A DNA stretch of 64,000 bases, from contig CAYYUI010000002.1 in NCBI GenBank assembly GCA_964474705.1, forward strand, positions 5-64,004, given 5' to 3'. This stretch comes from an uncultured bacterium (GTDB taxonomy: Bacteria > Muiribacteriota > Ozemobacteria > Ozemobacterales > Ozemobacteraceae). A program made the position numbers and the translations under genes. The notes below the pieces were generated by a model. The model had not been told where the DNA came from and ran no database searches. It saw only the letters and a program-made list of their open reading frames with translations. Below, one piece after another: positions 33,912 through 61,500 of this stretch (position 1 is its first letter; each line of letters starts with the position of its first letter).

Positions 33912-35261
33912 TTGGAGGGAAATATGAAAAAACTTACCGGTTTTCTGATGGTTGTTGCGGTGCTTTTCTCTTTTGCAGTGATGATCACTGCTGAAGAAAC
34001 CGCAACCTCGACCGAGACTGCGACCACAACCGCAACTGGCACTGAAACGACAGCTGCCGCTCCTGAAGAAAAACCAATTCCAGATAATGCCGATATGACC
34101 CTTGGCATGCAGTCACAGGACAATGTCATGCCTGCCACTTTCCGTGGCGGCGACCCCGACAACAGCCTCGTTCACTGCCTTGAAGACGTCTATTACGAAA
34201 AGCAGGAACATTCTCTGATCTACAAAGAAGACGCCAGTGAACTCAAAGAAGGCGCCAAATTTGAAACCGACCCCAATATCACCTGGGATACCAAAGTCAA
34301 AGATGCCGATGGTAACTGGAAGACCCTGCAGAGTGCCAATACCAACGTCGCCAGAGACGGCGGTTATTTCTATGCTCCAGGCGAATACCAGATCGGCAAC
34401 AGTGGTGCCCGTCAGGTTGGTGCCAGCACTGCCGGTGCTGACAATGTCGGCGAAGGCGATGATCCGACCGATGACGAAGAAGCTGCCGGTGGCGACAAGA
34501 CCGATACCGCTCTGGTCGGTGCAGACGGCAAAACCGAAGCCGAAACCAAAACCGTTACTGCTCAGCAGTCAATGGGTGTTCAGGTTCACGACGTTACCTC
34601 TCCTGACCTGTGGGTAGCCTTCCAGGAAGGCGCCGGCACTGTAGACATGGCCGCCACCGAACAGGAACTCAAGAACAAAATGATGGAAAAGATCGTTTCC
34701 ACTCTTGGCCGCCCGTTCTCGACCAAAGGCGAAGACTATGAAGAAGCCAGCTACATGTTTATCGACGAAGGCGATGAAGGCGAACGCGATCTTGAACCTT
34801 TCAAGAAAACCGCAAGACTGTCAGTTGCCGGTGCTCTGTTCAACGAACGCGGCGCTCCCAAATTTGAAACCAAGACTGTTGAATCCAAGACTCTCGACAA
34901 AGAAGCCATGACCCGCCAGGTTCATGTCTCCGGCGGCGACAACAGCGCTCTCAAGGGCGTTTTCGTCAGACGCAACGTTCCGTTCATTTTTGCCTCCATG
35001 GCTATCGACAATGGCGACCTGCGCGCCTCAGCCGGCGAAGTTGCCTGCAGAATCGAAAAAGCCGACGGCACTGAAGTTGAAAAAGAAGGTAACAGCTACC
35101 TGTTCCGCGTTCCGAACTTTCCTCGCGACAACTATGCTGACCAGCCCGAATATTTCTTCGTCGCCAAGGGCAGCGACAAATCAGGTAACCTCACTACCGT
35201 AAGAACTCCTCTCTATATCGTTAACACTCAGGCAGCCTTCGAGGGCGGCAGCAACCAGTAA
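33912..35261 (+). CDS. secreted acidic Thr/Ala-rich protein
   Basis: Signal peptide LTGFLMVVAVLFSFAVMITA. A TETATTTATGTETT low-complexity tract, then an acidic globular region. GGAGGG SD. Confidence 0.55.
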   Translation: MEGNMKKLTGFLMVVAVLFSFAVMITAEETATSTETATTTATGTETTAAAPEEKPIPDNADMTLGMQSQDNVMPATFRGGDPDNSLVHCLEDVYYEKQEHSLIYKEDASELKEGAKFETDPNITWDTKVKDADGNWKTLQSANTNVARDGGYFYAPGEYQIGNSGARQVGASTAGADNVGEGDDPTDDEEAAGGDKTDTALVGADGKTEAETKTVTAQQSMGVQVHDVTSPDLWVAFQEGAGTVDMAATEQELKNKMMEKIVSTLGRPFSTKGEDYEEASYMFIDEGDEGERDLEPFKKTARLSVAGALFNERGAPKFETKTVESKTLDKEAMTRQVHVSGGDNSALKGVFVRRNVPFIFASMAIDNGDLRASAGEVACRIEKADGTEVEKEGNSYLFRVPNFPRDNYADQPEYFFVAKGSDKSGNLTTVRTPLYIVNTQAAFEGGSNQ

Positions 35262-35277
35262 GGCTACAGCCCAAGTC

Positions 35278-36303
35278 ATGAAAAAATTCCTGATAAATGC
35301 TGTTGCCGCTGTTATGGTAATCGGTTCGATGGTATCAGCTCAGGAGCCCCAGACAGGGGCTCCTGCCGCTGCTTCTGAGAATCTTGAAAAAACTCCCTGG
35401 CTGAAGGGTGTCACAATCAGTCCTTATCCGGTTGACCTCAGTCCGGTTCTGCCGCTGAAAATTTCCGCTGATAATGGTGAGCCACTTGCTGCCACGATGA
35501 CCGAAGATATGCCGTTTATGGTTCAAGCCGATACGGCTATTTTTGAGGATGCACCGCCGGCAGAATACAAAGGACAGCCTATTCCCAACCCCCGCTGGGA
35601 AGAAAACCCAGCTGTATCCTGGTTCTTCATCGACTGGGAGAAAAACAAAAATCACATGGCATCGGTTTCTCAGCCTCTGGCGCTTAACCAGATGGTTGTA
35701 ATCCCGACCATGCCGACCGGAAAGGGTGCAGTCACCTGCCACATTGCCCGCAAGATGCGCTACGATCTCGCTGAACCCGGACGCACCAAGTCGACCTACG
35801 CAAACTCAAGCGGCGCAAAAGATGTGAGAGTTCTCGATATCACTCCTCCGTTGTGCGGTCTCGAAATTTCGATCGAAAACGGTGGTTCCGGCGCCTGCTG
35901 GCCGGTCGAAAACCCGCCCGACAAATATCCGCTTCCGAAACAGGCCGATGTTTATCTGAATGGCTCGTTGTTTAACGCCATTGATCAGGATATCGTGGTT
36001 TCCGGGCTGGAGCTTGGCGGCAACATGGTTATTCCTGCCGAACAGGCTGCCCTGAGTGTTTCTGCCCAGGATAAACTTCACATCAAGGTTATCGGTGGCG
36101 ACAACTACAAGCTCGATAACGCTAAACTCAAATACGGTATCTGCAATGGCGCCGGCGGTGAACCGGCCCCGGCAGGTCCGGTGAACGAAGAGACTCTTGA
36201 CCTGAGCAAGCTCAAGCTTCCTGAAGCGCCGTATCTGTATCTTGACGCCACAGATGTAGCCGGCAACCGTCAGGTGATGTACATTGCGATCAAAGTGAAA
36301 TGA
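35278..36303 (+). CDS. secreted hypothetical protein
   Basis: Signal peptide LINAVAAVMVIGSMVSAQ. Its start is 17 nt after the upstream gene, so the two are probably cotranscribed. Confidence 0.55.
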   Translation: MKKFLINAVAAVMVIGSMVSAQEPQTGAPAAASENLEKTPWLKGVTISPYPVDLSPVLPLKISADNGEPLAATMTEDMPFMVQADTAIFEDAPPAEYKGQPIPNPRWEENPAVSWFFIDWEKNKNHMASVSQPLALNQMVVIPTMPTGKGAVTCHIARKMRYDLAEPGRTKSTYANSSGAKDVRVLDITPPLCGLEISIENGGSGACWPVENPPDKYPLPKQADVYLNGSLFNAIDQDIVVSGLELGGNMVIPAEQAALSVSAQDKLHIKVIGGDNYKLDNAKLKYGICNGAGGEPAPAGPVNEETLDLSKLKLPEAPYLYLDATDVAGNRQVMYIAIKVK

Positions 36304-36325
36304 CCTGACCGTCTGAAGTTGCAAA

Positions 36326-36366
36326 GAAGCCAGGAGAGCGTGCTCCTCTGGCTTCTTATTTTATTT
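36326..36366 (+). terminator. putative rho-independent terminator
   Basis: gaagccagg-agagcgtgc-tcctctggcttc stem followed by TTATTTTATTT. Confidence 0.45.
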
Positions 36367-36413
36367 CTGTGCTTTGCCTGCGGTGTGTGTTATTCTATAA
36401 ATGAAAGACACGA

Positions 36414-37094
36414 ATGATGAAGATGATCAGGCATAAAAGAAAAGATGGCATCACCTTTGTCGAGGTAATGCTTGCATTTCTAATTCTCGGGCTGCTTTTT
36501 CTGCCGGTTTTCTTTTTTCTGACCGGCGCGGTTCGTGATACCGAGAAATTTTACACCGAAACCGTCGCGATTTCGCGGGCAAAATTCATCATGGATTCAC
36601 TGATGTTCCAGTTTCCATGGTGGTCTATCAAGGCAGGCAATCCCTGCGAGTTCACTTCATACAACAGTGTTACCAAAAAATCTGTGAATGGGGTCAGTTC
36701 ACTGCTCGATAAAGCCATACCGGCAATGCTTGGTCAGGATGGCGAACCGGCTGAAATGCTGAAGATTTCCGCCAGCCCGCTCAAATACAGAGGTGAAGGT
36801 CTGTACCGATGTCGCAAAGGCTTTCTCTTCAGAGCCCGTGTTAAGGTTGTCGATCTCGATTACGATTCGACCTCGGCCAATCCGGTCATGTTCTCGATTC
36901 CGATCCCGGGTTCGCCGAACAAGCATGAGTTTCAGATCAACCAGCTTGTCTCGAAGCGTGATGATAAGTTCAATCTGATCAAAAAGATCATCGTTCAGGT
37001 CAAATGGTCAAATAACAAGGGCAAAGATCCAAAAGACGACAAGGGAGCGAAAAGCATTTTTCTTGTTGCCTTCAAATCTGATCTGGAAGGTTGA
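36414..37094 (+). CDS. pseudopilin-like protein (prepilin-type N-terminal motif)
   Basis: N-terminus KDGITFVEVMLAFLILGLLFLPVFFFL matches the class III signal / N-methylation motif (G|FTxxE + hydrophobic helix). Confidence 0.6.
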   Translation: MMKMIRHKRKDGITFVEVMLAFLILGLLFLPVFFFLTGAVRDTEKFYTETVAISRAKFIMDSLMFQFPWWSIKAGNPCEFTSYNSVTKKSVNGVSSLLDKAIPAMLGQDGEPAEMLKISASPLKYRGEGLYRCRKGFLFRARVKVVDLDYDSTSANPVMFSIPIPGSPNKHEFQINQLVSKRDDKFNLIKKIIVQVKWSNNKGKDPKDDKGAKSIFLVAFKSDLEG

Positions 37095-37097
37095 AGC

Positions 37098-37631
37098 ATG
37101 AAAAGACATGGCGTAGCAATAGTTGTGGTGCTGTTTTTCGCGTTTTCAATCGCGATAATTCTATTTTTCATGCTTCACTCGAATACCAATCTGGCCTATC
37201 AGAACAAGCAGACGCTCTATCAGATGCAGGCTTATTACCTGGCACATTCGGCCATGCAGCACGCTAAACTGCAGCTGCGCCTGCTTCCGAAAGAAACCTA
37301 CGAATTTTTCGCCAAGAATGGTACAGGCAATCCTTATGCCGACATCGACAGCTCCAACTATCCTCCGACCGCCATGGGGGTTTTCAGCAATAAAAATGCC
37401 GGTTATGACCTGTTCAAACCCGACAAATGCAGTGACGAAAAGTTTCCCTACGGCGGAAAATACCATGTTGAAACTCTTGAGCTACAGGGCTCGCACGACC
37501 GGATGAAAATGGTTCAGGATGGCTACAAAGTGGTGGTCAAGGCTGAAATTGACGGCGGTCGCGGCAAAACCTTCTCTGAAGAGCTGGCCGAAGAAATGAT
37601 CGTATCGCGATACACAGGGGGCCTCAAATGA
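37098..37631 (+). CDS. membrane-anchored pseudopilin-like protein (GspK/I-like N-terminus)
   Basis: N-terminus RHGVAIVVVLFFAFSIAIILFFM with no Glu at +5, as in GspK-type minor pseudopilins. Tightly linked to the flanking pseudopilin genes. Confidence 0.45.
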   Translation: MKRHGVAIVVVLFFAFSIAIILFFMLHSNTNLAYQNKQTLYQMQAYYLAHSAMQHAKLQLRLLPKETYEFFAKNGTGNPYADIDSSNYPPTAMGVFSNKNAGYDLFKPDKCSDEKFPYGGKYHVETLELQGSHDRMKMVQDGYKVVVKAEIDGGRGKTFSEELAEEMIVSRYTGGLK

Positions 37632-38671
37632 ATAGATGCTCCCGTAAAGGGGTAACCCTTGTCGAAGTCATGTTGACGGTGGCAATGCTCAGTCTGCTTT
37701 TTGGGGCGGCCAACGGCGTCATGACCTATTCGCGACGCGAGACCGAAAAGGGCTTCTGGATTCAGCAGGCGATCACGCAGCTGCGCAATACGACGCGCGC
37801 CATTTCCATGAAATTGAAGCAGACTTCTTACCCCTCGACCCTGATAAGAACGGCAACGGGTGATGAAAAGGTAATGTCCTTCAAGGAACGCCGCGAATAC
37901 GATGCCAGCGGCCGCCTGCGCAAGCTTGACATCAACCCGAGCGATGCCTATGAGCTGCGTTCGGTAATCAGCGGTTCAGGGGCGCTCATTCCTTCTTTTG
38001 AGGATCAGACGATCATGTATTTTCCGATCTGTGAGCCCGAAAAAGATTATGATACCGGTTACACCGCCGGCACGATAACCTGGGTTCATCTGGTGCTGCG
38101 CCCGGCCAAAGATTACCGGAGCAGCGGTCTTGGCAGCATTCACATGGTCGAGCATCAGGAAACCTACGATACCCGCGCTTACCCGCTCAAAAGAGCGTTT
38201 GGTCTCAACAAGACCTTCAGCAAAAGTGTTCCGATTCTGCGCACCAAAGAGCTGATAACCGATGTGCGCGAGATCAAGATCGATTTTTACGATATCGATG
38301 AATTGAGAGGCTCATACGTCGATAAAGATGGCAAACTGTCCGATGAAAAGATGGTGAAGCGCACCTTGATTTCACTGGGTATCAGCTGCTGTCACCCCAG
38401 AGACAAAAAAATCTGGATGAGCGACCAGTGTTCGGTAATCAACAATGTTGAACTGGTCGAGCTGCCAAGTCCGGCGACCATGGAACTGGTCAAGGTCATT
38501 TCCACCGGCCCATCCGGTTCGGCGCAGGTAAAGCTTGCAGGAGTCTCTCAGACGGTGAACGTCGGCAGCATGATGAATACCTACAAGGTAAAAGAGATTC
38601 TCAGTGACGCTCTGGTGCTTCTCGACCCGGCAACCGGCATCGAATCATATCTGACGAAGCTGGACGAATAA
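37628..38671 (+). CDS. pseudopilin-like protein (prepilin-type N-terminal motif)
   Basis: N-terminus RKGVTLVEVMLTVAMLSLLFGAANG is a canonical G|VTLVE prepilin motif. Overlaps the upstream gene by 4 nt. Confidence 0.6.
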   Translation: MNRCSRKGVTLVEVMLTVAMLSLLFGAANGVMTYSRRETEKGFWIQQAITQLRNTTRAISMKLKQTSYPSTLIRTATGDEKVMSFKERREYDASGRLRKLDINPSDAYELRSVISGSGALIPSFEDQTIMYFPICEPEKDYDTGYTAGTITWVHLVLRPAKDYRSSGLGSIHMVEHQETYDTRAYPLKRAFGLNKTFSKSVPILRTKELITDVREIKIDFYDIDELRGSYVDKDGKLSDEKMVKRTLISLGISCCHPRDKKIWMSDQCSVINNVELVELPSPATMELVKVISTGPSGSAQVKLAGVSQTVNVGSMMNTYKVKEILSDALVLLDPATGIESYLTKLDE

Positions 38672-48029: not shown

Positions 48030-48914
48030 ATGATAAAGCGCTATGAATTTCGAGTAACACTCTGCATTGTTCTCTCGTTGCTCATGCTGGTAGACTTCAC
48101 GGTATTCAATCCGGCTCCGGCATTCGCTCTTGACAAGAAAAGCGTTCTGATCGGCGCAGGCGTTGGCGCTGCTGCCGGTGCTGGTATCGTTCTTGCCGCA
48201 CCTGCTATTGGTGCAGCTATCGGTGCAGCCGGTGGTATCGCCGGGGTCGGCACTGCAGTCGTCGGTGGCGTCGCCGCAGTTGGCGGTGGTGTAGTCGGCG
48301 CTCTGGCCGCTTTTGGTGGTGCAATAGCCTCTGCTCTTGGCGCAGTGGGTGGCTTCATCGTCGGTATCTTTACCAGCCCGCTGTTCATTCCGGCGTTGAT
48401 TCTGGTAGGTGCTGCAGTAGCCGGTTATTTCCTCTACAAGAGATACAAAGCCAAAAAGAATGCTTCTTCAACAGCCTCTGGCGCTTCTGACGAAGTAATT
48501 CCTTCCTCTGACGAAATCTACGTTACCCCCGGTGACTACGAAATGAGCGGTGGCGTTGTTCCGTCAGGCGACCAGGATGCCGCGATCAGCGTTGGCGACA
48601 CTATCTCGATCGGTGGCGGCGACAGTGTAGTAGTATCCAACGAAGTTCCGGTAACGAACACTACTACTACAACCTCTGCTGAAGCTCCGACCGTCAGCAC
48701 CTCGACTACTACCGAAACAGCCACAACCGGTATCGCAACTTCAAGCGATGCACTCAAAGCCGCTCATGACCGCTATATCTCATGCTACCAGAAGTATACC
48801 ACTCTGGTTACCAACAGTGGCGGTGCCGATCCTGCTGAAATCAAAGCCGCTCTGGCTGAATACCGGGCCGCTTACAATGACTATCAGAATCTGCGCATGT
48901 CTGGCAGCAAATAA
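48030..48914 (+). CDS. glycine-zipper membrane protein with Thr-rich acidic C-terminal region
   Basis: GxxxG/AxxxA-rich hydrophobic core (GAGVGAAAGAGIVLAAPAIGAAIGAAGGIAGVG...). GGGG SD upstream. Confidence 0.5.
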   Translation: MIKRYEFRVTLCIVLSLLMLVDFTVFNPAPAFALDKKSVLIGAGVGAAAGAGIVLAAPAIGAAIGAAGGIAGVGTAVVGGVAAVGGGVVGALAAFGGAIASALGAVGGFIVGIFTSPLFIPALILVGAAVAGYFLYKRYKAKKNASSTASGASDEVIPSSDEIYVTPGDYEMSGGVVPSGDQDAAISVGDTISIGGGDSVVVSNEVPVTNTTTTTSAEAPTVSTSTTTETATTGIATSSDALKAAHDRYISCYQKYTTLVTNSGGADPAEIKAALAEYRAAYNDYQNLRMSGSK

Positions 48915-51657: not shown

Positions 51658-51843
51658 TCAGTCCTTTGCGAAGTAAAGCTGTTTGAGGATCATGTAGTCC
51701 TGGCACATGTAGGCGAGATCCCAGCCGTTGCGGCCGGCTTCGTCAAGTAATGAACCGAGGCGTTCAAGAAATTCGGGGCCCTGCATTGGTGTGAGATCGA
51801 GGGTTTTATAATTCCAGCGCTGTGGTGATTTTTCAAGCATCAT
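51658..51843 (-). CDS. small DUF4177-like protein
   Basis: 61 aa with W(N)YKTL...LGSLLDEAGRNGWDL, resembling the DUF4177 WEYK...GWEL pattern. This is an inference from a remembered family profile. Confidence 0.4.
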   Translation of the reverse strand: MMLEKSPQRWNYKTLDLTPMQGPEFLERLGSLLDEAGRNGWDLAYMCQDYMILKQLYFAKD

Positions 51844-54220
51844 GATTTTTCTCCTGGCCTGGGTGCTGATCCTGCAGGATCGAGTTCAAATAGAGGTAGC
51901 CTTTGAGCATCTGTCTGAGCGAGGCATCCTGTTGCGGTGACTGAGCGCAGGCACGCAAAGTCAGATCGATGGCACTGAAGCCCTTCTGATGCTGACCGGT
52001 AAGATTGAAGCAGTAAGCAAGCAAAAGGTTGGATTCTACGTCTACCGGCGAAATGTCGACCGCTTTCAGCAGAACTTCAATTGCCTTGTCGTATTGCTTC
52101 AGCTGAATGTGCAGGGTGGCGAGTTTCTGATAGATTACCGGGTTGCGGGGCGAAAGCGCTGCCGCATGGGTGAGCAGTTTAACGCTCTCATTGAACTTGC
52201 CGGCGATCTGGTATATCTGACCGAGAATCAGGTAAGCGCCGAGAATTTTCGGGTAAATGCTCAGAGCTTTGACCAGATGCTTTACTGCGTCTTCATATTT
52301 TCGGCTGTAAAAATAGATGGTGCCGAGATTGAAATGGGCTTTGACCAGATTGGGGTTGATTTTGATCGCTTCGAGATAGAGCTTGGCCGCCTCATTGTTC
52401 TTTTTCTGCAGAAAGCAGAGGTTGGCAAACCCGAGCAGGGCCTTGAGATGCTGCGGGTCTTTCTGATAGATCATCTTGAAGATTTTTTCAGCGGCAGTGA
52501 AATTTTTAGCGGTAATAAAGCGGTTGGCGCTTTCAATTTCCTCATCATAGCTGTTGTCTGGCAGTATCTGGCTGGTGAGGACGACTGGTTTCGGCGCGAC
52601 TTCTTCATCTTCAGGCTGCTGTGTATGGGAATCCTTGCCTGGCGGGGCAGCGGGTGTGTCAGTAATCGGCGTTGCCGGAACGACGATCGAGGCCACCGGA
52701 GCAGCCACACCCCCGTCGGCGGCTATTTGTCGGTTGATGGCATCTGGGTTGCCGATCAATTCAGCGAGCAGGTTGTTGATCTGTTTGAGAAGCACTTCGT
52801 CATGGCTGATTTCTTTGCCGATTTCACCGAGAACGAAGGTTGCCGACTGGATGCGGCGCTTGTCTTCGCTTTTAAACAGTTCGCGGAGGTTGTCGAGAAC
52901 GCTGTATTCGCCCCACACCCAGAGGGTTCTGATCGCAGTACTTTTTACCCGGTTGTCTTCATGCTGCAGCAGATCCGTTAATTTGTTTATCAGCTCCGGG
53001 GCAGGCTTTCTCGATATCCTGACCATAGCATCGATGGTATTTGAAACAACTCTTGGATCTTCGCTGCCGAGGAATGGGCTGATGATGGCAATGACATCGG
53101 CTTTGGCGGTCTGCCCCAGGCAGGAAATGAGGGTTGCCTGCACGATAAAATTTTCTTCGCGCTGCAGTTTTTCTTTAAACATCGGCAGGGCGGCTTCAGG
53201 GGCGCAGCGTGCAATAGCCAGGGCCGCTTCAACCCTGACATCGAAATTCGGGTCGTCGAGCATCGGCTTCAAATGAGGCAGGGCGTCTTTCATTTCGATT
53301 TTACGCAGGGCATTGGTGGCATTGCGTCTGACATCGGGGTCTTCGTCTTTAAGGGCCCGGCCGAGCTCACGTATGAATCGCGAATCTTTAATTTCGCCGA
53401 TGGCGTAGGCGGCTGAGGCCCGATACCACTTGTCGGCGTGTTCCAGCATCTGGCGCAGGGTTTCTGAAACATCGAAGTCACCGTATTTCCAGATTGCCTT
53501 GGCTACATTCGCTCTGACGCGGTTACTGGGGTCTTCGAGATATGGCTGCAGAATGCCCACGATTGAGCCCGATTTGATGGTTTCGATGGCTTCGATGGCA
53601 TTGGCGCGAACACGCGGGTCTTCATCGCGCAGCGCCGCCTGGAAAACCGGCATAAGCTTGTCTGAGGCCATGTTGCCGAGAGCCATAATAATGGAAGCTC
53701 TGATCCTGGCACTTTTCTCCTGGGCAAGAAGCTTTTTCAACAGTGAGATAGCCCGCCAGTTTTTGATTTTGCCGACTGCGATGATGGCGCTGATAATGGC
53801 GTCTTCTTCGAAAAATATCTGGGAAGCATGTTCTTCGAGGGCCTGGGTGCTGGCGCCGACGTTTGCTTCCGAATAGGTGTTGAGAGCTTCCATCAGAATG
53901 TCGAAGGCCTCGGGGTTCTCGAGCATTCCAAGTGCCTGGGCGGCATTGAAGCGTACTTCCTGCTGGGAATCATTGAGAGCGTTTATAAGAAGTCCGATAG
54001 CCTTGTGGTTGTCTATGTTTCCCAGTGCCAGGGCCATGAAATCCTGAATATTGTCACTTTCGTAGGTCTGCAGCAGAAAATCGGTCGCCTTTTCACCTTT
54101 GAATTTTGAGAGGGCAATGGCGGCTTCGCGGCGTTGATCGTAGTCGCCGGCGACAAAATTATGAATAAGCCTGGCAATAAGTGGCTTGATGCTGGTAAGG
54201 ACTACATTGTTGGCGGTCAT
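51833..54220 (-). CDS. HEAT (PBS-lyase-type) repeat plus TPR repeat protein
   Basis: N-terminal 30-aa HEAT-like units (DEDPRVRANAIEAIETI; DPSNRVRANVAKAI; DEDPDVRRNATNAL; DPNFDVRVEAALAI). A Pro/Thr linker precedes C-terminal TPR units. Divergent from the pilT operon. Confidence 0.75.
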   Translation of the reverse strand: MTANNVVLTSIKPLIARLIHNFVAGDYDQRREAAIALSKFKGEKATDFLLQTYESDNIQDFMALALGNIDNHKAIGLLINALNDSQQEVRFNAAQALGMLENPEAFDILMEALNTYSEANVGASTQALEEHASQIFFEEDAIISAIIAVGKIKNWRAISLLKKLLAQEKSARIRASIIMALGNMASDKLMPVFQAALRDEDPRVRANAIEAIETIKSGSIVGILQPYLEDPSNRVRANVAKAIWKYGDFDVSETLRQMLEHADKWYRASAAYAIGEIKDSRFIRELGRALKDEDPDVRRNATNALRKIEMKDALPHLKPMLDDPNFDVRVEAALAIARCAPEAALPMFKEKLQREENFIVQATLISCLGQTAKADVIAIISPFLGSEDPRVVSNTIDAMVRISRKPAPELINKLTDLLQHEDNRVKSTAIRTLWVWGEYSVLDNLRELFKSEDKRRIQSATFVLGEIGKEISHDEVLLKQINNLLAELIGNPDAINRQIAADGGVAAPVASIVVPATPITDTPAAPPGKDSHTQQPEDEEVAPKPVVLTSQILPDNSYDEEIESANRFITAKNFTAAEKIFKMIYQKDPQHLKALLGFANLCFLQKKNNEAAKLYLEAIKINPNLVKAHFNLGTIYFYSRKYEDAVKHLVKALSIYPKILGAYLILGQIYQIAGKFNESVKLLTHAAALSPRNPVIYQKLATLHIQLKQYDKAIEVLLKAVDISPVDVESNLLLAYCFNLTGQHQKGFSAIDLTLRACAQSPQQDASLRQMLKGYLYLNSILQDQHPGQEKNHDA

Positions 54221-54328
54221 CGGTTTTCCCCGGCAAATAAGGCTTCAGCAGAAATTTTAGCAGAAACGCGAACAAATTAGAATACTGCAAACATTAAGAA
54301 AAGTTAAAGCAAATTTTATTTTGTTTGG

Positions 54329-54357
54329 TTGAACAGCGGGGTTTTTGTGCTTATAAT
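54329..54357 (+). promoter_or_regulatory. near-consensus sigma70 promoter TTGAAC-17-TATAAT, positioned for a leaderless pilT transcript
   Basis: TTGAAC at 54329..54334, a 17-nt spacer, then TATAAT at 54352..54357. The predicted TSS at ~54364/54365 coincides with the PilT ATG at 54365. The track's TTG 'start' at 54329 is the -35 box. Confidence 0.5.
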
Positions 54358-54364
54358 GACTGAC

Positions 54365-55438
54365 ATGGCAGACGCAAAAAGCTTGTTCAGATTACTAAAA
54401 CTGACTTTTGATGAGAACGCCTCCGACCTGCACCTGAAAATCGGCAAATCGGCCGCAATCAGGGTCGATGGGCACATTCGTCATCTTGAAGATTTTAAAT
54501 TCAACAAACATGATTTCGACCGGATTATCGAGGTGTTGTTGACCCCTGACCAGCAGGACCAGTTCCGCAAAAACCGCGAAATTGACTTTGCCTATTCCCT
54601 CGAAGGAGTATGCAGATTCAGGGTGAACCTCTACCAGGACCTGAACGGCGCCGGAGCCGTCTTCAGGGTGATTCCATACCGGGTTATGGAATTCGACGAA
54701 ATCGGCCTGCCCTTCGCCGCGCGTCGGCTGATCGAGCAACCCAATGGCCTGATTCTCATCACCGGGCCGACCGGGGCCGGCAAAACGTCGACGATGGCCA
54801 GTTATCTGAGCTATGTCAATCGCAATGCCCGTCGCCATGTGGTGACGCTCGAAGACCCGATCGAATATCAGTTCGAAGATGGCAACAGTTTCTTCAACCA
54901 GCGTCAGGTCGGCATCGACTGTTTGAGTTTTTATGACGGTCTGCTGACTGTTCTCCGCCAGGACCCCGACATAATCGTCGTCGGTGAAATGCGCGAACCT
55001 GAAACGATTTCTCTGACACTTAACGCCGCCGAAACCGGGAAACTGGTCATCGCGACTCTGCATACCAGCTCGGCGGTCAGTACCGCTGAGCGCATTGTCA
55101 ACGTTTTTCCCGAGGCCAGGCATCATCAGATTTTTCTGCAGCTGTCGATGGTGCTGCGCGGAGTCGTTTCACAGACGTTGCTGCCAAAAGTCGAAGGCGG
55201 CCGGGTCGCGGCTTTCGAAATACTGCTGAATACTTCGGCGGTTCGGTCTCTGATTGCCGACGGCAAGATTCACATGTTGCCGTCTTATCTTGAAACCGGA
55301 ACCGAATTCGGCATGACCACCATGGAAATGTCACTGGCACAGCTGGTTAAAGACCGGGTTGTCAGAAAAGAAGATGCATATTCGGTGGCGCCTAATCCGG
55401 CGGCACTGCGCAAGATCCTCAACGAACCGCCAGTCTGA
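54365..55438 (+). CDS. pilT: type IV pilus retraction ATPase PilT (canonical motifs)
   Basis: N-terminal ASDLHL...IRVDG domain. Walker A GPTGAGKTST, Asp box LEDPIEY, Walker B DPDIIVVGEMRE, His box IATLHTSSA. Confidence 0.85.
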   Translation: MADAKSLFRLLKLTFDENASDLHLKIGKSAAIRVDGHIRHLEDFKFNKHDFDRIIEVLLTPDQQDQFRKNREIDFAYSLEGVCRFRVNLYQDLNGAGAVFRVIPYRVMEFDEIGLPFAARRLIEQPNGLILITGPTGAGKTSTMASYLSYVNRNARRHVVTLEDPIEYQFEDGNSFFNQRQVGIDCLSFYDGLLTVLRQDPDIIVVGEMREPETISLTLNAAETGKLVIATLHTSSAVSTAERIVNVFPEARHHQIFLQLSMVLRGVVSQTLLPKVEGGRVAAFEILLNTSAVRSLIADGKIHMLPSYLETGTEFGMTTMEMSLAQLVKDRVVRKEDAYSVAPNPAALRKILNEPPV

Positions 55439-55451
55439 CGGGGTAACCAGC

Positions 55452-56489
55452 ATGCTGAGAATTCACCGCTTTTTTGAAATTGCCATCGAACGCCAGGCCT
55501 CAGATCTTCATCTCAAGGCCGGGGCGCCGCCGATCATCAGGGTCGGAGGGCGACTTATTCAACTTCCTGAAGAACCGCTGGCTTATCAGGAAATGCCGAA
55601 TCTCTTTTTGCCGTTGATGGATGTTAAAGCACAGAGCGATCTACGTGCCCAGCATGAAGCGAACTTCATGGCCAGATACAAGAACCGCTGGCGGGTGCGC
55701 GCCTGCATTTTCAGCCAGCGCGGCTGCCTTTCCGGGGCTTTCCGTTTCATTCCCCTCTCGACGCCATCGATCGATGGTCTTGGCCTGCCACCGCTGCTCA
55801 AGGAAATAGCAGCGCGGCCGCGCGGCCTGTTTCTGGTAACCGGGCCGGCCAACTCGGGCAAAACCCATACTCTTGCAGCAATCGTCAACGAGATCAACCG
55901 TATCTCAGCCCGACACGTCATCACTATCGAAGACCCTATCGAATTTGTCTACCGCGAACGCAAGTCGATATTTACCCAGCGCGAAATCGGGGTAACCGCC
56001 AACGATTACCACAGCGCCCTGATGAATGCGCTACGAGAAGACCCCGACGTAATTCTGGTCGGTGAAATGCGTGATGTCGATACCATTGAAATGGTACTGA
56101 CTGCTGCCGAAACCGGTCATCTGGTCTTGTCGACCCTGCATACGGTCGGGGCGGTGCAGACTATCGATCGCATTATCAACATGTTTCCGGGGCATCGCCA
56201 CGAAGAAATCCGTACCCAGGTTTCGATGTCGCTGATCGGAATAATTTCGCAGATACTTCTGCCCAGTCTGCACAAGAAAGAACGGGTCATGGCTTATGAG
56301 CTGATGATAATGAACTCGGCCATGCGGAACCTGATCCGTGAAAAGAAGACCAACCAGCTTAAGTCTGCTCTGATGCTGGCGCGCAAGGACGGCTGCAAAA
56401 CCCTCAAAGACTCGCTCAACGAAATGCTCAAAGATGAACGTGTCGATGGCCGGCTGGTTTCGACGGTCATGAAGGAGATAGTAGAATGA
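55452..56489 (+). CDS. PilT/PilU-family retraction ATPase (canonical motifs), second copy
   Basis: Walker A GPANSGKTHT, Asp box IEDPIEF, Walker B DPDVILVGEMRD, His box LSTLHTVGA. The ATG at 55452 lies 13 nt after the pilT stop. Confidence 0.85.
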   Translation: MLRIHRFFEIAIERQASDLHLKAGAPPIIRVGGRLIQLPEEPLAYQEMPNLFLPLMDVKAQSDLRAQHEANFMARYKNRWRVRACIFSQRGCLSGAFRFIPLSTPSIDGLGLPPLLKEIAARPRGLFLVTGPANSGKTHTLAAIVNEINRISARHVITIEDPIEFVYRERKSIFTQREIGVTANDYHSALMNALREDPDVILVGEMRDVDTIEMVLTAAETGHLVLSTLHTVGAVQTIDRIINMFPGHRHEEIRTQVSMSLIGIISQILLPSLHKKERVMAYELMIMNSAMRNLIREKKTNQLKSALMLARKDGCKTLKDSLNEMLKDERVDGRLVSTVMKEIVE

Positions 56490-58633
56490 GTCACCATGAA
56501 ATCGAATCCTTCAGATATGTCAAAGCGGCCCGCCGCCTGATGAAACCTTCGACTGAACGACTCGAAGCGATGATCTACGAAGATTTTTCCGACGAACTCA
56601 AGTTTGAAGCATTACTGAGCCTCGGCAGAATCGGCGACCAGGATTCTTTGCAGACCCTGACTCGCGCGTTCAACGATTACCCGGATTACATCGAACCGGT
56701 AACTGCGCTGGGCCATTATCGAAGCAGTACCCCGGTGGCGAAACTTCTCGAACGTCTCCAGGACCCAGATTCATTGTTTAAAGAAGAAATTGTCAGGGTG
56801 CTGGGTGAAATCGGTGACCCGATGGCCACCCGGTCGCTAATGGAACTCCTGCATGACGAGGACCGCATGGTTCGCTACTATTCGGCACGGGCTCTGCATA
56901 AAATGGGGGGGCGCGATGTCGTTCAGGCTCTCTGCAGCCTTTTGAACGACCCGGATGAATGGATCGTCATCAACGTTCTCGAGATTCTTTCCAGTATGCG
57001 TGATCCTGAGGCAATTCCAGCCCTGGTGGGGCAATTTGAAATAGCCCGTGACTCGCGATTGAAGGCAATCATCATCTCGTCACTGGCAACGTTCTCAGAA
57101 GGTCGTCTGCTCAAAACCTTCGAAAGCGGCCTTGGGTCATTTGACCCACGTATTCAGGCCAATTCCGTCGAAGCGGTGTCGATGCTGAAAATTCCGGCGC
57201 TTGAAATGAAGCGCAAATTGAAAAAATTCTATGGGCATCCGAACAATCGGGTCAGGGCCAATCTATGTATTGCTCTTGCCAATGCCGATGCCGAGGCGGT
57301 TACCGAAGAACTTGCCGCGATGATGCAGAGTCGTGACGCACCGACCAGACGTTCGGCTGCCTATGTGCTGGCCCGCATCAACAACCCGAAGCGTGAAGAA
57401 TACGTGCACAAACTTCTGGCTGATGAAAATTTCGGGGTTAGAAAAATGGCTCTCAAAGCAGCTCTTGAACTCGGCGATCTGGTAGGAGCCCGTGAGATTC
57501 AGCCGCTTCTGGCTGATGAAAACCAGTGGGTGCGCCGTGAAGCTGTAGAATGTGCGACCCGCATCGACGATTTTCCTGATGATGCGGTGCTTGGCCTGTT
57601 TAAAAAGGAAGAAACGCCGCCGGTTATCGAAGTGCTGTTGAAATATATAGTAAAACGCAGGCTGGTTGCGGCAATACCGCAGATTTTCGAAAGAATCCGC
57701 AAGGAACCGGAAGAGGAAATGCCCTGGCTGATTGCGGCTCTTGGTCATCTGGGCGCACGCGAAGAGCTTGGCAAAGTCAAAAAGTTTCTTGGCGCGGTGC
57801 GCTCGAATGTTTACTCTGAATATTATCAGGCTTTGATGCTTAATGGCGAGTTGACGGTATTTGAAGAAATCGCCGGCGGCCTCAAAGACAGGAAACGTGA
57901 AAACGAGCTGATGGTTTGGGTTAAGATTTCCGGAGTCATCGGCGGTTTCATGCAGAGAACCGATGAGTTTTCCCGGGCTCTTTTGACATCGCTCGCCGAT
58001 GAGGTGCAGCGAGACATGGATGGAGTAACCGTTTTTGCCGATGCCGAAAAGGAAACTCCAGACCATAAGGCTCAGATGCAGGAGGGCCTGGCTCTGTTCG
58101 ACAGCCGTGATTTCAGCCGGGCCCGTGAAATTTTCGAGAAGGTTTATAAGGCGAGGCCGAAAGATTTCGAAGCCGGGTTCCATCTGGCGAACTGCTTGTA
58201 CAATCTAGGTGAAATGCCCCGTTCCCAGGAAATCCTCGAGAAGATCATTCACCACAATCATGGGCAGGTTGAAGCGGGAATTCTACTTGGGCAGATCTAC
58301 TTCAGGCGCAAGGAATGGGCCAAACTTGCCGGTTGCTACGAAAAACTCAGGAAGCATGTTCAGGCCGACGACAAAAAGAACATCATCAAGGTCTATGGGG
58401 CTCTCGGGCTTGCCTATTTCAACCAGAAAAAATACGTCGAGGCGATCGAGGCTCTCAATCTCGGTTTGCAGGCAAATCCGCGTGATCTGTCGTCTTCTTA
58501 TCATCTCGCTCTCTGTTACTACTCGGTTGGCGAAACTGAAAAAGCCCGGCGTATTCTCGAAACGCTGCGCAAAACACTTCCCGCCGACAGCCAGGTGCTC
58601 AAGAACGTCATCGAGCTGCTGCAGCGCATTTAA
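56486..58633 (+). CDS. HEAT (PBS-lyase-type) repeat plus TPR repeat protein, paralogue of 51833..54220
   Basis: HEAT-like units (DPRIQANSVEAV; NNRVRANLCIALA; DAPTRRSAAYVLARI; DENQWVRREAVEC), then C-terminal TPR units. Its ATG overlaps the stop of the upstream ATPase (ATGA). Confidence 0.75.
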   Translation: MSHHEIESFRYVKAARRLMKPSTERLEAMIYEDFSDELKFEALLSLGRIGDQDSLQTLTRAFNDYPDYIEPVTALGHYRSSTPVAKLLERLQDPDSLFKEEIVRVLGEIGDPMATRSLMELLHDEDRMVRYYSARALHKMGGRDVVQALCSLLNDPDEWIVINVLEILSSMRDPEAIPALVGQFEIARDSRLKAIIISSLATFSEGRLLKTFESGLGSFDPRIQANSVEAVSMLKIPALEMKRKLKKFYGHPNNRVRANLCIALANADAEAVTEELAAMMQSRDAPTRRSAAYVLARINNPKREEYVHKLLADENFGVRKMALKAALELGDLVGAREIQPLLADENQWVRREAVECATRIDDFPDDAVLGLFKKEETPPVIEVLLKYIVKRRLVAAIPQIFERIRKEPEEEMPWLIAALGHLGAREELGKVKKFLGAVRSNVYSEYYQALMLNGELTVFEEIAGGLKDRKRENELMVWVKISGVIGGFMQRTDEFSRALLTSLADEVQRDMDGVTVFADAEKETPDHKAQMQEGLALFDSRDFSRAREIFEKVYKARPKDFEAGFHLANCLYNLGEMPRSQEILEKIIHHNHGQVEAGILLGQIYFRRKEWAKLAGCYEKLRKHVQADDKKNIIKVYGALGLAYFNQKKYVEAIEALNLGLQANPRDLSSSYHLALCYYSVGETEKARRILETLRKTLPADSQVLKNVIELLQRI

Positions 58634-58649
58634 TTAAAGAGGTCGCAAA

Positions 58650-59696
58650 ATGTCAGAATTGTTGAAAGTATGTCAGCTGGTCAAGGTTAAGGGGGCTTCA
58701 GATATCCACCTCTACCCGGATCAGCCGGTGTTTTACCGCCTGTACGGCCAGATCGAAAAGCTCGATACGGTGCAGCTCAGCGAAGACCAGATAAAGAAGA
58801 TCATTCTCGAAACCAGCACCCCGAAAGCCCGTGAAATTCTCGGTAAGCAACGCCAGGTAACTTATGCCGAAGAAGTGCCTACCGTTGGGCGCCTCAGGTT
58901 TTCAGTGTTTCTCGACAAAGGAAAGTTTGCCATCGCCATACGTTTTATCAGCGAGAAATTTTTCGAACTCGATGAGCTTGGCTTTGCCGAGGGAATCCGC
59001 AAGGTGATTTCGCAGCCATCTGGTCTGGTGCTGGTGGGCAGCCCTTCCGGGGAAGGAAAAACCACAACCATTGCTGCGATGCTCAATTTTATCAACCGGC
59101 ATTTCGAAAAAAGCATTTTTACCATCGAGAATCCCGTAGAATACGTGTTCTCAGATGATAAGGCCGCTTTCATCCAGCGTAGTATTCCGGTCGATATTTC
59201 AAATTTTTACAACGGTCTCTGCGAAGCCTATCGGGTTGATCCCGACGTCGTCGTATCTGATTCCATCAATTATTCCGATGCCATGGATCAGGCCCTGACC
59301 CTTTGCGAGTCCGGCTGCATGGTAATCGGTTCCACTGAAGGTGGGGACTGTCAGCAGATTCTCGAGCGTCTGATCAACTGCCGTGAGCCGGCAGGCCGTG
59401 AAGCTTTGCGGGCAAGAATCGCCGCGCAACTGAAGATGATTGTCAGTCAGCGCCTGATTCCGCGCGAAGATAAGACCGGCAGAGTTGCCATCTTCGATAT
59501 CATGATCAACACGCCGCAGATGAAAGCCCTGGTTCGCAACAATAACATGAGCATGTTTCGTGCTCTGCAGGGGCAGGGAGAAATCGCCGGCATGAAGACC
59601 TTCGATTCACAGCTGGCGCACCTGGTGAGAAAACGCATTATCAGTCAGAGAGTTGGGGCCGAATACGCGATCGATAAGTCGCGGATTAACAGTTAA
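58650..59696 (+). CDS. PilT-like ATPase paralogue with degenerate catalytic motifs (probable pseudo-ATPase)
   Basis: PilT N-domain is retained (ASDIHLYPDQPVFYRLYG). The P-loop is GSPSGEGKTTT, with the first Gly shifted. The Asp box is IENPVEY (D to N). Walker B is DPDVVVSDSINY, with the catalytic Glu and the Arg lost. The His box is GSTEGG, with His lost. AAAGAGG SD. Confidence 0.75.
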   Translation: MSELLKVCQLVKVKGASDIHLYPDQPVFYRLYGQIEKLDTVQLSEDQIKKIILETSTPKAREILGKQRQVTYAEEVPTVGRLRFSVFLDKGKFAIAIRFISEKFFELDELGFAEGIRKVISQPSGLVLVGSPSGEGKTTTIAAMLNFINRHFEKSIFTIENPVEYVFSDDKAAFIQRSIPVDISNFYNGLCEAYRVDPDVVVSDSINYSDAMDQALTLCESGCMVIGSTEGGDCQQILERLINCREPAGREALRARIAAQLKMIVSQRLIPREDKTGRVAIFDIMINTPQMKALVRNNNMSMFRALQGQGEIAGMKTFDSQLAHLVRKRIISQRVGAEYAIDKSRINS

Positions 59697-59709
59697 AGGG
59701 GACTGCAGC

Positions 59710-60750
59710 ATGGATATCCGCAAAATGATCGAAAAAGTAAAGACCGCAGGCGGCACCGAGCTGCATCTTAAGGTTGGTGCCAAACCCCTGATGCGCCGCA
59801 ACAAGTTTCTCCGCCACATGGAACTGCCGATTCTGCACGAAGACGATATGTCAACTCTGATCAAAGATCTCCTCAACGATGAAGACCGCCAGAAATTCGC
59901 CAGACTCAGTTCTTTCGAAGCGAACTTCTTTGGCAAACCGCCCTGTAACTTTCGTCTTACCCTTTTTCATTCGCAACAGAAGCCGGTCGCCCTGATCAAA
60001 ATCATCAACAACAAGATTCCCAGTCTCGAAGAAATCAGGTTTCCTGACGCTCTTACACCGATTATCGATGCCCGCAAGGGTATTTTCATAATCGCAGGGC
60101 CTGCCAGATCAGGCATTTCAACCTCGCTTGCCGCAATCGTGGAGCGCATTAACCAGATGCATCCACGGCATGTGCTGATCATCGAAGATCCGATCGAATT
60201 CAACTTTGAACCCAAGCGCTGCCGCATTTCTCAGAGGCAGTTCCGCAAGGATATCAACCAGATCGAGCAGGGCATCAACTTTGCCAAGCGTATGGATGTG
60301 GATGTCCTGGTGATTGGCGATCTCAAACGGGAAATTCCATTTCGGAACATTGTGGAATACGTTGCCGGCGGTCATTTTGTCATTCTGAGCATGCAGACGC
60401 TTGGAATTGTCAACACTCTCGAAAAATTCATCTTCTCATTTCCCGAGCCTGACCGTGAATATGTCTGTCAGGTGCTGGCTGAAAATCTGCAGGGAATCTG
60501 TTCGCAGATGCTGATTGCCGATATGGGCGGCAAGCGCGTGGTGCCTGTTCACGAGACTCTGGTAATGAACAACACTGCGATGAGCATTGTTCAGAAAGGC
60601 AAAATTTCACAGCTTGAACCCAATATCACCAGTGTCGGGCCGGGTAGCCAGCTGTTTGCGCAGGTCGTTCAGAAGCTCTATCTCAAAAACGATCTCGAGC
60701 GCACCGCCGGCGAAGATTTTCTCGATTTCTACCGTGGGGCCAGGGGGTAA
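59710..60750 (+). CDS. PilT-like ATPase paralogue with P-loop Lys lost (probable pseudo-ATPase)
   Basis: Walker A is AGPARSGISTS, with the Lys replaced by Ile. Walker B is DVDVLVIGDLKR, with Glu lost. The His box is LSMQTLG, with His replaced by Gln. The Asp box IEDPIEF is retained. AAAGGGGA SD before the ATG at 59710. Confidence 0.75.
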   Translation: MDIRKMIEKVKTAGGTELHLKVGAKPLMRRNKFLRHMELPILHEDDMSTLIKDLLNDEDRQKFARLSSFEANFFGKPPCNFRLTLFHSQQKPVALIKIINNKIPSLEEIRFPDALTPIIDARKGIFIIAGPARSGISTSLAAIVERINQMHPRHVLIIEDPIEFNFEPKRCRISQRQFRKDINQIEQGINFAKRMDVDVLVIGDLKREIPFRNIVEYVAGGHFVILSMQTLGIVNTLEKFIFSFPEPDREYVCQVLAENLQGICSQMLIADMGGKRVVPVHETLVMNNTAMSIVQKGKISQLEPNITSVGPGSQLFAQVVQKLYLKNDLERTAGEDFLDFYRGARG

Positions 60751-60752
60751 TT

Positions 60753-61133
60753 ATGAACAGCAGCCGTGGCAGAAGAGGTTTCACGCTTGTCGAAATGAGC
60801 GTCGTCGTGGCCATAATCGGGGTGCTTTATGCAACCGTGGTGCCTGTTTATGGCAAAACAATTATGCGTGCCCGTGAAACAGCGCTTAAAAACAGCCTGC
60901 ATACCTTCCGCATTACCCTCAACAATTATTACAAAGATCACGAAAAATGGCCTGAAAAACTCGATGTGCTGGTGACTGAAGGTTACATCCGGGCTGTTCC
61001 GGCAGACCCTTTTACGGATCGCAGTGATACCTGGTTGGTTGTGCCCTCTGAACCCGGTTTGTCAGATGTTTACGACATCAAATCGGGTGCTGAAGGTGCC
61101 AGTCTCGATGGTGTACCTTATGCAGATTTCTGA
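60753..61133 (+). CDS. GspG-like major pseudopilin (type II secretion / type IV pilin fold)
   Basis: N-terminus RRGFTLVEMSVVVAIIGVLYATVVPVY is a class III signal with Glu at +5. Length 126 aa. The C-terminal region resembles GspG (ITLNNYYKDHEKWPEKLDVLV...PADPFTD). AGGGGG SD. Confidence 0.75.
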   Translation: MNSSRGRRGFTLVEMSVVVAIIGVLYATVVPVYGKTIMRARETALKNSLHTFRITLNNYYKDHEKWPEKLDVLVTEGYIRAVPADPFTDRSDTWLVVPSEPGLSDVYDIKSGAEGASLDGVPYADF

Positions 61134-61500
61134 GCGTTCCGGAATTTCACTGCTGGTGCTGACGGTTGCTCTGGTTCTTATGGCTATTGGTCTTTCAGTC
61201 GTCATTCCGCGTGCTGATCTTGAGGTCAGACGCAGTCACGAAGAAGATCTGCGCTTCAAGCTCGGTGAATTCCGCCGGGCGGTAAGCAAATTTGCCAGAT
61301 GCAATGGCCGGCAGCCTGCCAATCTTGATGAACTGCTATGCGATGCTGGTGGGCGAAAGTTTCTGCGCCGGGCTTATGTCGATCCGATGACCGGTGCCTT
61401 CGACTGGCAGTGGGGTATTGCTTCCGATGGGGTGTTTGCGGTGCATTCTGCAAGCCAGCAGCCAGGAATCAACGGCGTGCCTTACAGCGCTTTTCGTTAA
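61120..61500 (+). CDS. minor pseudopilin-like protein
   Basis: N-terminus ERSGISLLVLTVALVLMAIGLSVV (G|ISLLV + hydrophobic helix). Its ATG at 61120 overlaps the GspG-like stop. The track's start at 61024 lies inside the upstream gene. Confidence 0.55.
   Translation: MQISERSGISLLVLTVALVLMAIGLSVVIPRADLEVRRSHEEDLRFKLGEFRRAVSKFARCNGRQPANLDELLCDAGGRKFLRRAYVDPMTGAFDWQWGIASDGVFAVHSASQQPGINGVPYSAFR

Follow-up and report, generated by a model that had tools for sequence, protein, structure and literature searches.

What would a putative type IV pilus retraction locus do with four PilT-family ATPases encoded almost side by side, two of which have lost catalytic residues? The question is raised by positions 51833–61500 of a 64,000-nucleotide (nt) stretch of DNA from an uncultured Ozemobacteraceae bacterium (contig CAYYUI010000002.1, assembly GCA_964474705.1), referred to below in its full length as the window. 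Here a minus-strand gene for a HEAT-TPR repeat protein (H1) precedes seven plus-strand genes, encoding two PilT-family ATPases (A and B), a second HEAT-TPR protein (H2), two more PilT-family ATPases (C and D), a GspG-like prepilin (G) and a paralogue of the latter (P2). Retraction of type IVa pili is driven by motors of the PilT family, and for this reason we read the cluster as encoding the cytoplasmic motor components of a type IV machine; we infer this link to pilus retraction from the sequences. The locus is best read as a multi-motor system for type IV pilus retraction that contains fixed pseudo-ATPase paralogues as well as HEAT-TPR partners encoded in the operon, and that is found in one candidate phylum. 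More specifically, we propose, with about an even chance of being right, that this cluster specific to Candidatus Rifleibacteriota represents the retraction-motor side of a type IVa-like filament machine, in which C and D would form non-catalytic adaptor or regulator rings and the HEAT-TPR proteins would serve as scaffolds.

All four ATPases are single-module proteins of the T2SSE family (PF00437). Their best NCBIfam family is TIGR01420 (PilT/PilU; curated cutoff 319.1 bits), which A and B exceed and C and D do not reach, although it is by far the best match for the latter two as well. Motifs were read from an alignment with Aquifex PilT (sequence taken via the PDB alignment) and then checked on homologues; alignments of A, B and D with PilT chains of solved structure extend over the full length. 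The motif set of A (GPTGAGKT, EDPIE, GEMRE and TLHT for the P-loop, Asp box, Walker B and His box) is canonical across 31 orthologues, and that of B (GPANSGKT, EDPIE, GEMRD and TLHT) is conserved across 30. In both proteins the Asp box is intact, and the P-loop Lys, Walker B Glu and catalytic His are all retained. A sequence-only reading of the window had described these motifs as perfect, which holds for every catalytic residue, but A has Lys instead of the first His of the His box, and the P-loop of B is unusual. One of the 30 B orthologues contains GKMRD instead of GEMRD at Walker B (Glu to Lys), which reflects either an error of sequencing or assembly, or inactivation of B as well in that lineage.

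The corresponding motifs of C are SPSGEGKT, ENPVE, DPDVVVSDSINY and STEG, with the Walker B region reading SDSINY. Three catalytic residues are missing from C, namely the Walker B Glu, the Asp of the Asp box and the His of the His box. Its P-loop Lys-Thr and its two N-domain arginines are preserved, and the first Gly of its P-loop is substituted with Ser. In D (GPARSGIS, EDPIE, DVDVLVIGDLKR and SMQT; Walker B region GDLKR) the Asp box is intact, the P-loop Lys is replaced with Ile, the catalytic Glu with Asp, the His with Gln, and one of the N-domain arginines with Asn. The same reading had called this second pair catalytically degenerate, and both the alignment with Aquifex PilT and the homologues agree, so that an alignment artefact does not account for the losses. 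C and D probably cannot hydrolyze ATP by the mechanism of the family, while C probably still binds nucleotide.

The AlphaFold model of C (mean predicted local distance difference test score, pLDDT, of 83) superimposes on ATP-bound PilT4 (6ojx) with a template modelling (TM) score of 0.91 and on Thermus PilT2 with a score of 0.87. According to this model, C has the two-domain PilT fold, consisting of an N-terminal PAS-like domain and a RecA-like ATPase domain, without the long N-terminal domains of PilB and GspE and at a length within the roughly 345–370 aa typical of this fold. The only low-confidence stretch of the model (pLDDT below 50), residues 173–184 (window positions 59166–59201), corresponds to the family-invariant sequence FIQRSIPxD and could be an interface or a disorder-to-order loop.

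Losses of this kind are shared by whole protein families. A search with C produced 114 homologues, down to 47% identity, all bearing the substitutions of C; the named ones all belong to Riflebacteria, except for a few oddly labelled metagenome-assembled genomes (MAGs), and the next matches are canonical PilTs at 35% identity. The D orthologues collected from genome loci (about 40) all read GP[AST]RSGI[ST]T. An exhaustive search of 1.8 billion representative proteins for relatives of D outside the phylum yielded the D family only; below it, scores fall from 727 to 246 bits, and the next matches are fused or canonical PilTs. Divergence was measured against the locus of a congeneric species (L011). 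The non-synonymous divergence (dN) is 0.036 for C, 0.072 for D, 0.035 for A and 0.033 for B, compared to 0.165 for RecG and 0.192 for RecN. Decaying pseudogenes are ruled out, as the open reading frames (ORFs) of C and D are intact in all species and their dN lies below that of both RecG and RecN. Because the losses recur in the 114 C homologues and about 40 D orthologues and are accompanied by such low dN, they represent fixed states rather than decay; these comparisons indicate that they are ancient and under strong purifying selection.

Strong conservation around the active site would also fit a site that is still in use. C and D, or one of them, might work as slow ATPases or nucleotide switches through non-canonical residues: Asp 204 in C, and in D the Asp at the position of Glu together with an invariant Arg in the P-loop, three residues before the lost Lys. 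The P-loop Lys-Thr and both N-domain arginines kept in C, as well as the intact Asp box and the acidic residue at the Glu position in D, are consistent with this idea. However, the losses occur jointly (Glu, His and Asp-box Asp in C; Lys, His and one Arg in D), and both proteins score under the TIGR01420 cutoff. Single changes of such catalytic residues abolish ATPase activity in the PilT family. We therefore consider residual enzymatic activity of C or D quite unlikely and continue with non-catalytic C and D.

ORFs of the cluster were checked for existence and coordinates, and their families were assigned by Pfam and NCBIfam profile searches. All eight are present (Table 1), and their order and domain profiles agree with the gene content first proposed for this region. 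Junction lengths given earlier match the coordinates exactly: gaps of 13 nt between A and B, 16 nt between H2 and C, 13 nt between C and D and 2 nt between D and G, and overlaps of 4 nt (ATGA) between B and H2 and of 14 nt between G and P2.

Table 1. Genes of the cluster and its putative promoter, in window coordinates (aa, amino acids).
Feature	Coordinates	Strand	Basis
H1, HEAT-TPR alpha-solenoid, 795 aa, divergent from the operon	51833..54220	-	Pfam HEAT_2 1e-67, TPR_2 9e-23
Promoter-like site TTGAAC-17-TATAAT	54329..54357	+	Best consensus match of the region, 10/12
A, predicted catalytically intact PilT-family ATPase, 357 aa from ATG 54365	54365..55438	+	TIGR01420, 405.2 bits
B, predicted canonical PilT, 345 aa	55452..56489	+	TIGR01420, 384.1 bits; AIRNLIRE-type motif
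H2, putative HEAT-TPR scaffold, 715 aa	56486..58633	+	Pfam, AlphaFold model
C, predicted PilT-fold pseudo-ATPase, 348 aa	58650..59696	+	Motif states; TIGR01420, 275.8 bits
D, predicted PilT-family pseudo-ATPase, 346 aa	59710..60750	+	Motif states; TIGR01420, 217.6 bits
G, small GspG-like prepilin, 126 aa	60753..61133	+	PF07963, TIGR02532
P2, divergent paralogue of G	61120..61500	+	hhalign against the G family

The second active ATPase, B, had been labelled PilT/PilU. All four ATPases are in fact nearer to solved PilT than to PilU (9n32), with 307 versus 224 bits for A, 287 versus 216 for B, 180 versus 146 for C and 166 versus 133 for D; for B, these values rule out an assignment as PilU. An AIRNLIRE motif near the C-terminus of PilT is needed for its retraction function. 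It is near-perfect and conserved in B (AMRNLIREK), partial in A (AVRSLIADG) and not present in C (QMKALVRNN) or D (TAMSIVQKG).

In a neighbour-joining tree, A, B, C and D are each monophyletic (200/200 replicates), and B groups with the PilT of other phyla. The locus had been taken for a duplicated unit of one HEAT-TPR gene and two PilT genes, which would pair A with C and B with D. Neither pairing is supported: bootstrap values are 34/200 for A+C and 10/200 for B+D, compared with 146/200 for C+D, and pairwise identity is 36% between A and B and 20% between C and D. Two deep-branching genomes (GCA_015232575.1 and GCA_015233565.1) encode A-B-H2 at one locus and C-D-G(-P2) at another, placing H2 with A-B, and en-bloc duplication is thus not supported. 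Given these split genomes and the missing A–C and B–D pairing, the units of the cluster are A-B-H2, C-D-G-P2 and H1.

How widely these units travel together was surveyed with a pattern scan in which each GTDB species was represented by a single genome; loci were annotated by phmmer against the window proteins. It yielded 39 species-level loci across the phylum, all of Riflebacteria type, and the gene adjacency thus extends well beyond the genome in which it was first noticed. D directly follows C in 38/38 loci, and A-B-H2 lies immediately upstream of C in 29/31; H1 was found upstream in 22/26 species loci. G follows D in 29 of 35 loci, the split C-D-G loci included, P2 is found in 26 of 35, and a gut/rumen clade has lost G and P2 and kept A-B-H2-C-D. 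The stop codon of B and the start codon of H2 overlap by 4 nt in 28/32 species. Tight junctions are also found for C-D, D-G and G-P2, whereas the spacer between H2 and C exceeds all others in length and variability (median 55 nt). None of the families C, D, H1 and H2 extends beyond Riflebacteria (NCBI: Candidatus Rifleibacteriota), and the series includes Candidatus Ozemobacter sibiricus, the C protein of which is 51% identical.

Several other genomes deserve a comment. In the most divergent lineage (L049, 7253–9606; an AT-rich contig), H1 is followed by A-B-H2-C, with C-type substitutions in C and 38% identity in H2; no D was found in the 1.2 kb between C and the contig end. Complete clusters of Riflebacteria type also occur under the labels Candidatus Methylomirabilis, Candidatus Avigastranaerophilus, Erysipelotrichia and Clostridiales (L023, L031, L032, P0013 and P0047), and these four MAG labels are probably wrong. 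Genomes of the phylum encountered here come from groundwater, the rumen and other metagenome-assembled sources.

Conserved adjacency could in principle be nothing more than gene order inherited within one phylum, the HEAT-TPR proteins having an unrelated job. Every locus does come from a single phylum, HEAT and TPR repeats are generic, and the flanks, which are housekeeping genes, are often conserved as well: in the window, RsmD and RecG (minus strand) lie upstream of the cluster, and the convergent RecN gene downstream ends 3 nt from the stop codon of P2. Moreover, H1 is located beside RecG-RsmD, about 95 kb from A-B-H2, in one of the split genomes. However, A-B-H2 and C-D stay intact in loci where identity has dropped to 46–50% and the flanks are varied or rearranged (L026; RecN is absent in many loci). 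The 4-nt overlap between B and H2 survives the relocation of A-B-H2 in the split genomes, and H2 orthologues were seen only after B. Mere inheritance of gene order is accordingly the explanation that we find very unlikely, and we retain the reading of the cluster as a functional motor assembly.

H1 and H2 both contain HEAT_2/HEAT_PBS repeats in the N-terminal part and TPR repeats in the C-terminal part, as identified by Pfam. They had been described as clear paralogues, in agreement with their colinearity over the full length (22% identity, E = 6e-29). The AlphaFold model of H2 (pLDDT 90) is all-alpha, with a HEAT solenoid at residues 8–511, a disordered linker at 513–524 and a TPR domain at 526–714; residues 8–31 form the first helix of the solenoid. 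Inspection of the N-termini of H1 and H2 by eye revealed neither signal peptide nor lipobox, and both proteins are most likely cytoplasmic. Foldseek found only generic solenoids (alphaRep, importins, PP2A) as fold analogues of H2. Both proteins remain below the cutoff of the PilF/PilW/Tgl family of TPR pilotins (TIGR02521, 154 bits), scoring 55.8 bits (H1) and 43.5 bits (H2). Outside Riflebacteria, H2 scores drop from 523 to 204 bits, and full-length H1 orthologues occur only within this group.

A partnership of the HEAT-TPR proteins with the ATPases had been suggested as well. It stands for H2 and B, on the basis of the overlap in 28/32 species and the split genomes; from the conserved 4-nt overlap we infer that H2 is translationally coupled to B.

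Riflebacteria encode a third HEAT-TPR family (P0470–P0474; L051, 8001–10190), with proteins of about 730–750 aa that are 32–34% identical to H1. Its genes do not adjoin PilT genes; the L051 member has genes for an AglB-like oligosaccharyltransferase and a T2SSG-like pseudopilin in its neighbourhood. A tandem pair of large HAMP-SpoIIE proteins (PP2C-type phosphatases) adjoins this family in L051 (10262–15768), and a single HAMP-SpoIIE gene, with a STAS gene nearby, adjoins A-B-H2 in L047 (10410–13247). The window also contains such a tandem pair (20379–26163, minus strand), which has no HEAT-TPR neighbour. A partner-switching link between HEAT-TPR and HAMP-SpoIIE proteins is conceivable and is kept here as an anecdotal observation; an 838-aa neighbour and the 787-aa protein of L047 are unrelated to the HEAT-TPR family.

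The pilin-like genes had been described as GspG-like pseudopilins, which is appropriate for G. This protein is a canonical prepilin with the motif RRG|FTLVEM and matches PF07963 (28.4 bits; cutoff 21.2) and TIGR02532 (30.9 bits; cutoff 16.3). Its profile finds GspG (5wda) as the best full-length solved match (E = 5e-9), in addition to N-terminal helices of pilins. With 43.2 bits against TIGR01710 GspG (cutoff 88.85), G is predicted to be GspG-like, short of a demonstrated GspG. P2 fits the description less well: its N-terminus (RSG|ISLLVL) has no Phe1 or Glu5 and no canonical prepilin motif, and it yields no Pfam or NCBIfam match. Nevertheless, hhalign identifies P2 as a full-length paralogue of G (probability 99.1%, E = 5e-19).

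A GspG-like protein raises the possibility that C-D-G-P2 serves another type IV filament system, such as a short GspG-type pseudopilus or a non-retractile fibre, for instance by competing with its assembly ATPase, and that the two modules have merely been brought together. In line with this, C-D-G is separated from A-B-H2 in the deep-branching genomes, the nearest full-length match of G is GspG, the genes for G and P2 accompany C-D and not A-B, and the loosest junction of the operon falls between H2 and C. However, the modules are contiguous, co-oriented and separated by short gaps in 29/31 species, the gut/rumen clade keeps A-B-H2-C-D without G and P2, so that C-D does not depend on them, and C and D are of PilT type rather than GspE or PilB type. 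A separate filament system is thus unlikely in our opinion, and a common role of both modules in retraction remains the preferred reading.

About 13 kb from the ATPase operon, five co-oriented genes (33912–38671, plus strand) without Pfam matches encode two secreted proteins (449 and 341 aa) and, at 36414–38671, three pilin-like proteins (226, 177 and 347 aa), two of them with canonical prepilin motifs (G|ITFVEVM and G|VTLVEVM). The five-gene set looks like a minor-pilin set.

The start of the operon has a feature of its own. A TAnnnT −10 box located 7–8 nt before the conserved ATG of A is invariant in 13 species (window region 54295–54376 and its equivalents in loci within L009–L039); in the window it lies 7 nt ahead of ATG 54365. 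Since this box occupies the same place in all these species, A most likely starts at ATG 54365 (MADAKSL...) and not at 54329 or 54356. No space is left for a ribosome-binding site (Shine–Dalgarno sequence) between the −10 box and the ATG. This suggests that A, the first gene of the operon, is translated from a leaderless mRNA, provided that the promoter-like site functions as predicted.

We hypothesize the following mechanism. The A-B-H2 module would supply two catalytically competent hexameric PilT-family ATPases, with B acting as a canonical PilT and A as an accessory motor. H2, the synthesis of which would be tied to that of B, most likely serves to bind or position the motor. C would form an ATP-binding, non-hydrolyzing ring, since it keeps the P-loop Lys-Thr and the arginines and its catalytic base is gone. 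D, the P-loop lysine of which is gone, probably does not bind nucleotide in the usual manner. C and D are presumed to be co-transcribed with the GspG-like pilin G and its paralogue P2, and their rings, either homo- or hetero-hexamers, may attach to the pilus platform, to the active motors, or to both of these. There they would act as an adaptor, clutch or brake. H1 would be the second HEAT-TPR scaffold, and H1 and H2 together may scaffold or localize the rings.

The suggested role of C and D follows two precedents, PilT-PilU of Vibrio cholerae and FlaH-FlaI of archaea. In V. cholerae, PilT with mutated Walker A or B motifs still permits PilU-driven retraction, and a pilT deletion does not (PMC6821130); in a similar way, a C or D ring could act as an adaptor. 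Adjacent PilT-family paralogues that work on a single pilus machine, as in the PilT-PilU pairs of V. cholerae, Acinetobacter baylyi, Pseudomonas aeruginosa and Myxococcus xanthus, are represented here by the active pair A and B. However, there is no PilU orthologue among the four ATPases, HEAT-TPR genes are embedded in the operon, and the inactive state has arisen naturally and is fixed throughout the phylum, in two distinct paralogues beside two active ones. FlaH (ArlH) binds ATP without hydrolysis as a ring partner of the archaellum motor FlaI, and its nucleotide-dependent binding to FlaI is needed for assembly (PMC5019145). It thereby provides an example of the non-hydrolyzing ATP-binding ring proposed for C, although FlaH is an archaeal RecA/KaiC-type protein and not a motor paralogue, and we claim no homology between FlaH and C or D.

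M. xanthus, the multi-paralogue case studied best, possesses PilT and four paralogues, some of them adjacent (MXAN_6705/6706), with auxiliary roles in motility, and none of the five has lost the Walker A, Walker B, Asp or His box (PMC13584747). Several PilT-like genes, some adjacent, are thus common to both organisms, but C and D lack the full motif set. Because all the Myxococcus paralogues keep the four motifs, the Riflebacteria set differs in kind from ordinary paralogue expansion. The cytoplasmic TPR protein SgmX of M. xanthus stimulates type IV pilus formation and determines where and when the motor works (PMC7519303, PMC7668184). It resembles H1 and H2 in being a cytoplasmic protein with TPR domains; however, the target of SgmX is the extension side (PilB), and it is devoid of a HEAT domain, whereas H1 and H2 consist of about 500 aa of HEAT followed by about 190 aa of TPR, have full-length relatives only in Riflebacteria and are operonic with PilT-type genes.

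Fused tandem PilT-PilT proteins of 660–1024 aa (P0243–P0252, P0281 and P0332) occur elsewhere, e.g., in Candidatus Eremiobacterota (MEQ8220930.1), and three of them (P0250, P0251 and P0281) have degenerate Walker or His motifs in one or both PilT halves. They are similar to the present case in that two PilT modules are tied together and an inactive member can evolve; however, they are single polypeptides from other phyla with about 26% identity to C and D. We know of no characterization of such fused proteins. On pili of Riflebacteria, on pseudo-PilT paralogues occurring in nature and on a link between PilT and HEAT proteins, a literature search found nothing within a coverage that left out most subscription journals.

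A more detailed version of the mechanism is that C and D build a dedicated non-catalytic ring (a C3D3 hetero-hexamer or stacked rings), which senses nucleotide via C and, with the HEAT-TPR proteins, couples the two active PilT motors to the pilus base or uncouples them from it. We put this forward as a speculation that is more likely wrong than right, if still worth stating.

Several observations weigh against, or qualify, retraction with non-catalytic C and D. The sub-modules are separable in deep-branching lineages, and a single obligate complex is less likely for that reason. In one such lineage H1 stays with RecG and not with the ATPases; therefore, its adjacency in the window may be partly synteny. 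The C+D grouping in the tree may result from long-branch attraction. The dN/dS ratio (about 0.02–0.03) is only rough, as synonymous divergence (dS) is saturated. Residual nucleotide chemistry could persist in C and D, given the Asp beside the lost Glu in C and the invariant P-loop Arg in D, which might in principle compensate for the lost Lys. Finally, the 64-kb window contains no PilB, PilC, PilMNOPQ or secretin gene.

As for other functions, a role in defence received no specific full-length PADLOC match: only partial repeat-level HEAT/TPR and P-loop matches were obtained, and none for C, D, G and P2. Neither an Rfam family nor a tRNA was found in the window. Between RecD2 and RsmD, positions 48030–48914 (plus strand) encode a 294-aa protein without a Pfam match, the N-terminal half of which is hydrophobic, multi-pass and very rich in Gly and Ala, and the tail of which is rich in Thr and Ser.

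For the question of how PilT-family paralogues share out their tasks at the pilus base, the ability of ATPase-dead PilT to permit PilU retraction in the laboratory suggests that the ring itself has a structural role. In nature, the dead-PilT state appears to have been fixed twice in Riflebacteria, under a constraint stronger than that on RecG or RecN, which makes C and D evolution-tested sequences for asking what a non-hydrolyzing PilT ring does. H1 and H2 provide two candidate cytoplasmic partners for a motor family with few known ones. In public databases, C and D are labelled "PilT", "TadA" or "T2SS/T4P/T4SS ATPase", and H1 and H2 "PilF" or "phycocyanin operon protein"; inferences about metabolism or motility in the phylum would be led astray by these names. 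If the more detailed mechanism is true, the ring of C and D would be a natural pseudo-enzyme clutch of a type IV filament motor, a class of regulator so far undescribed.

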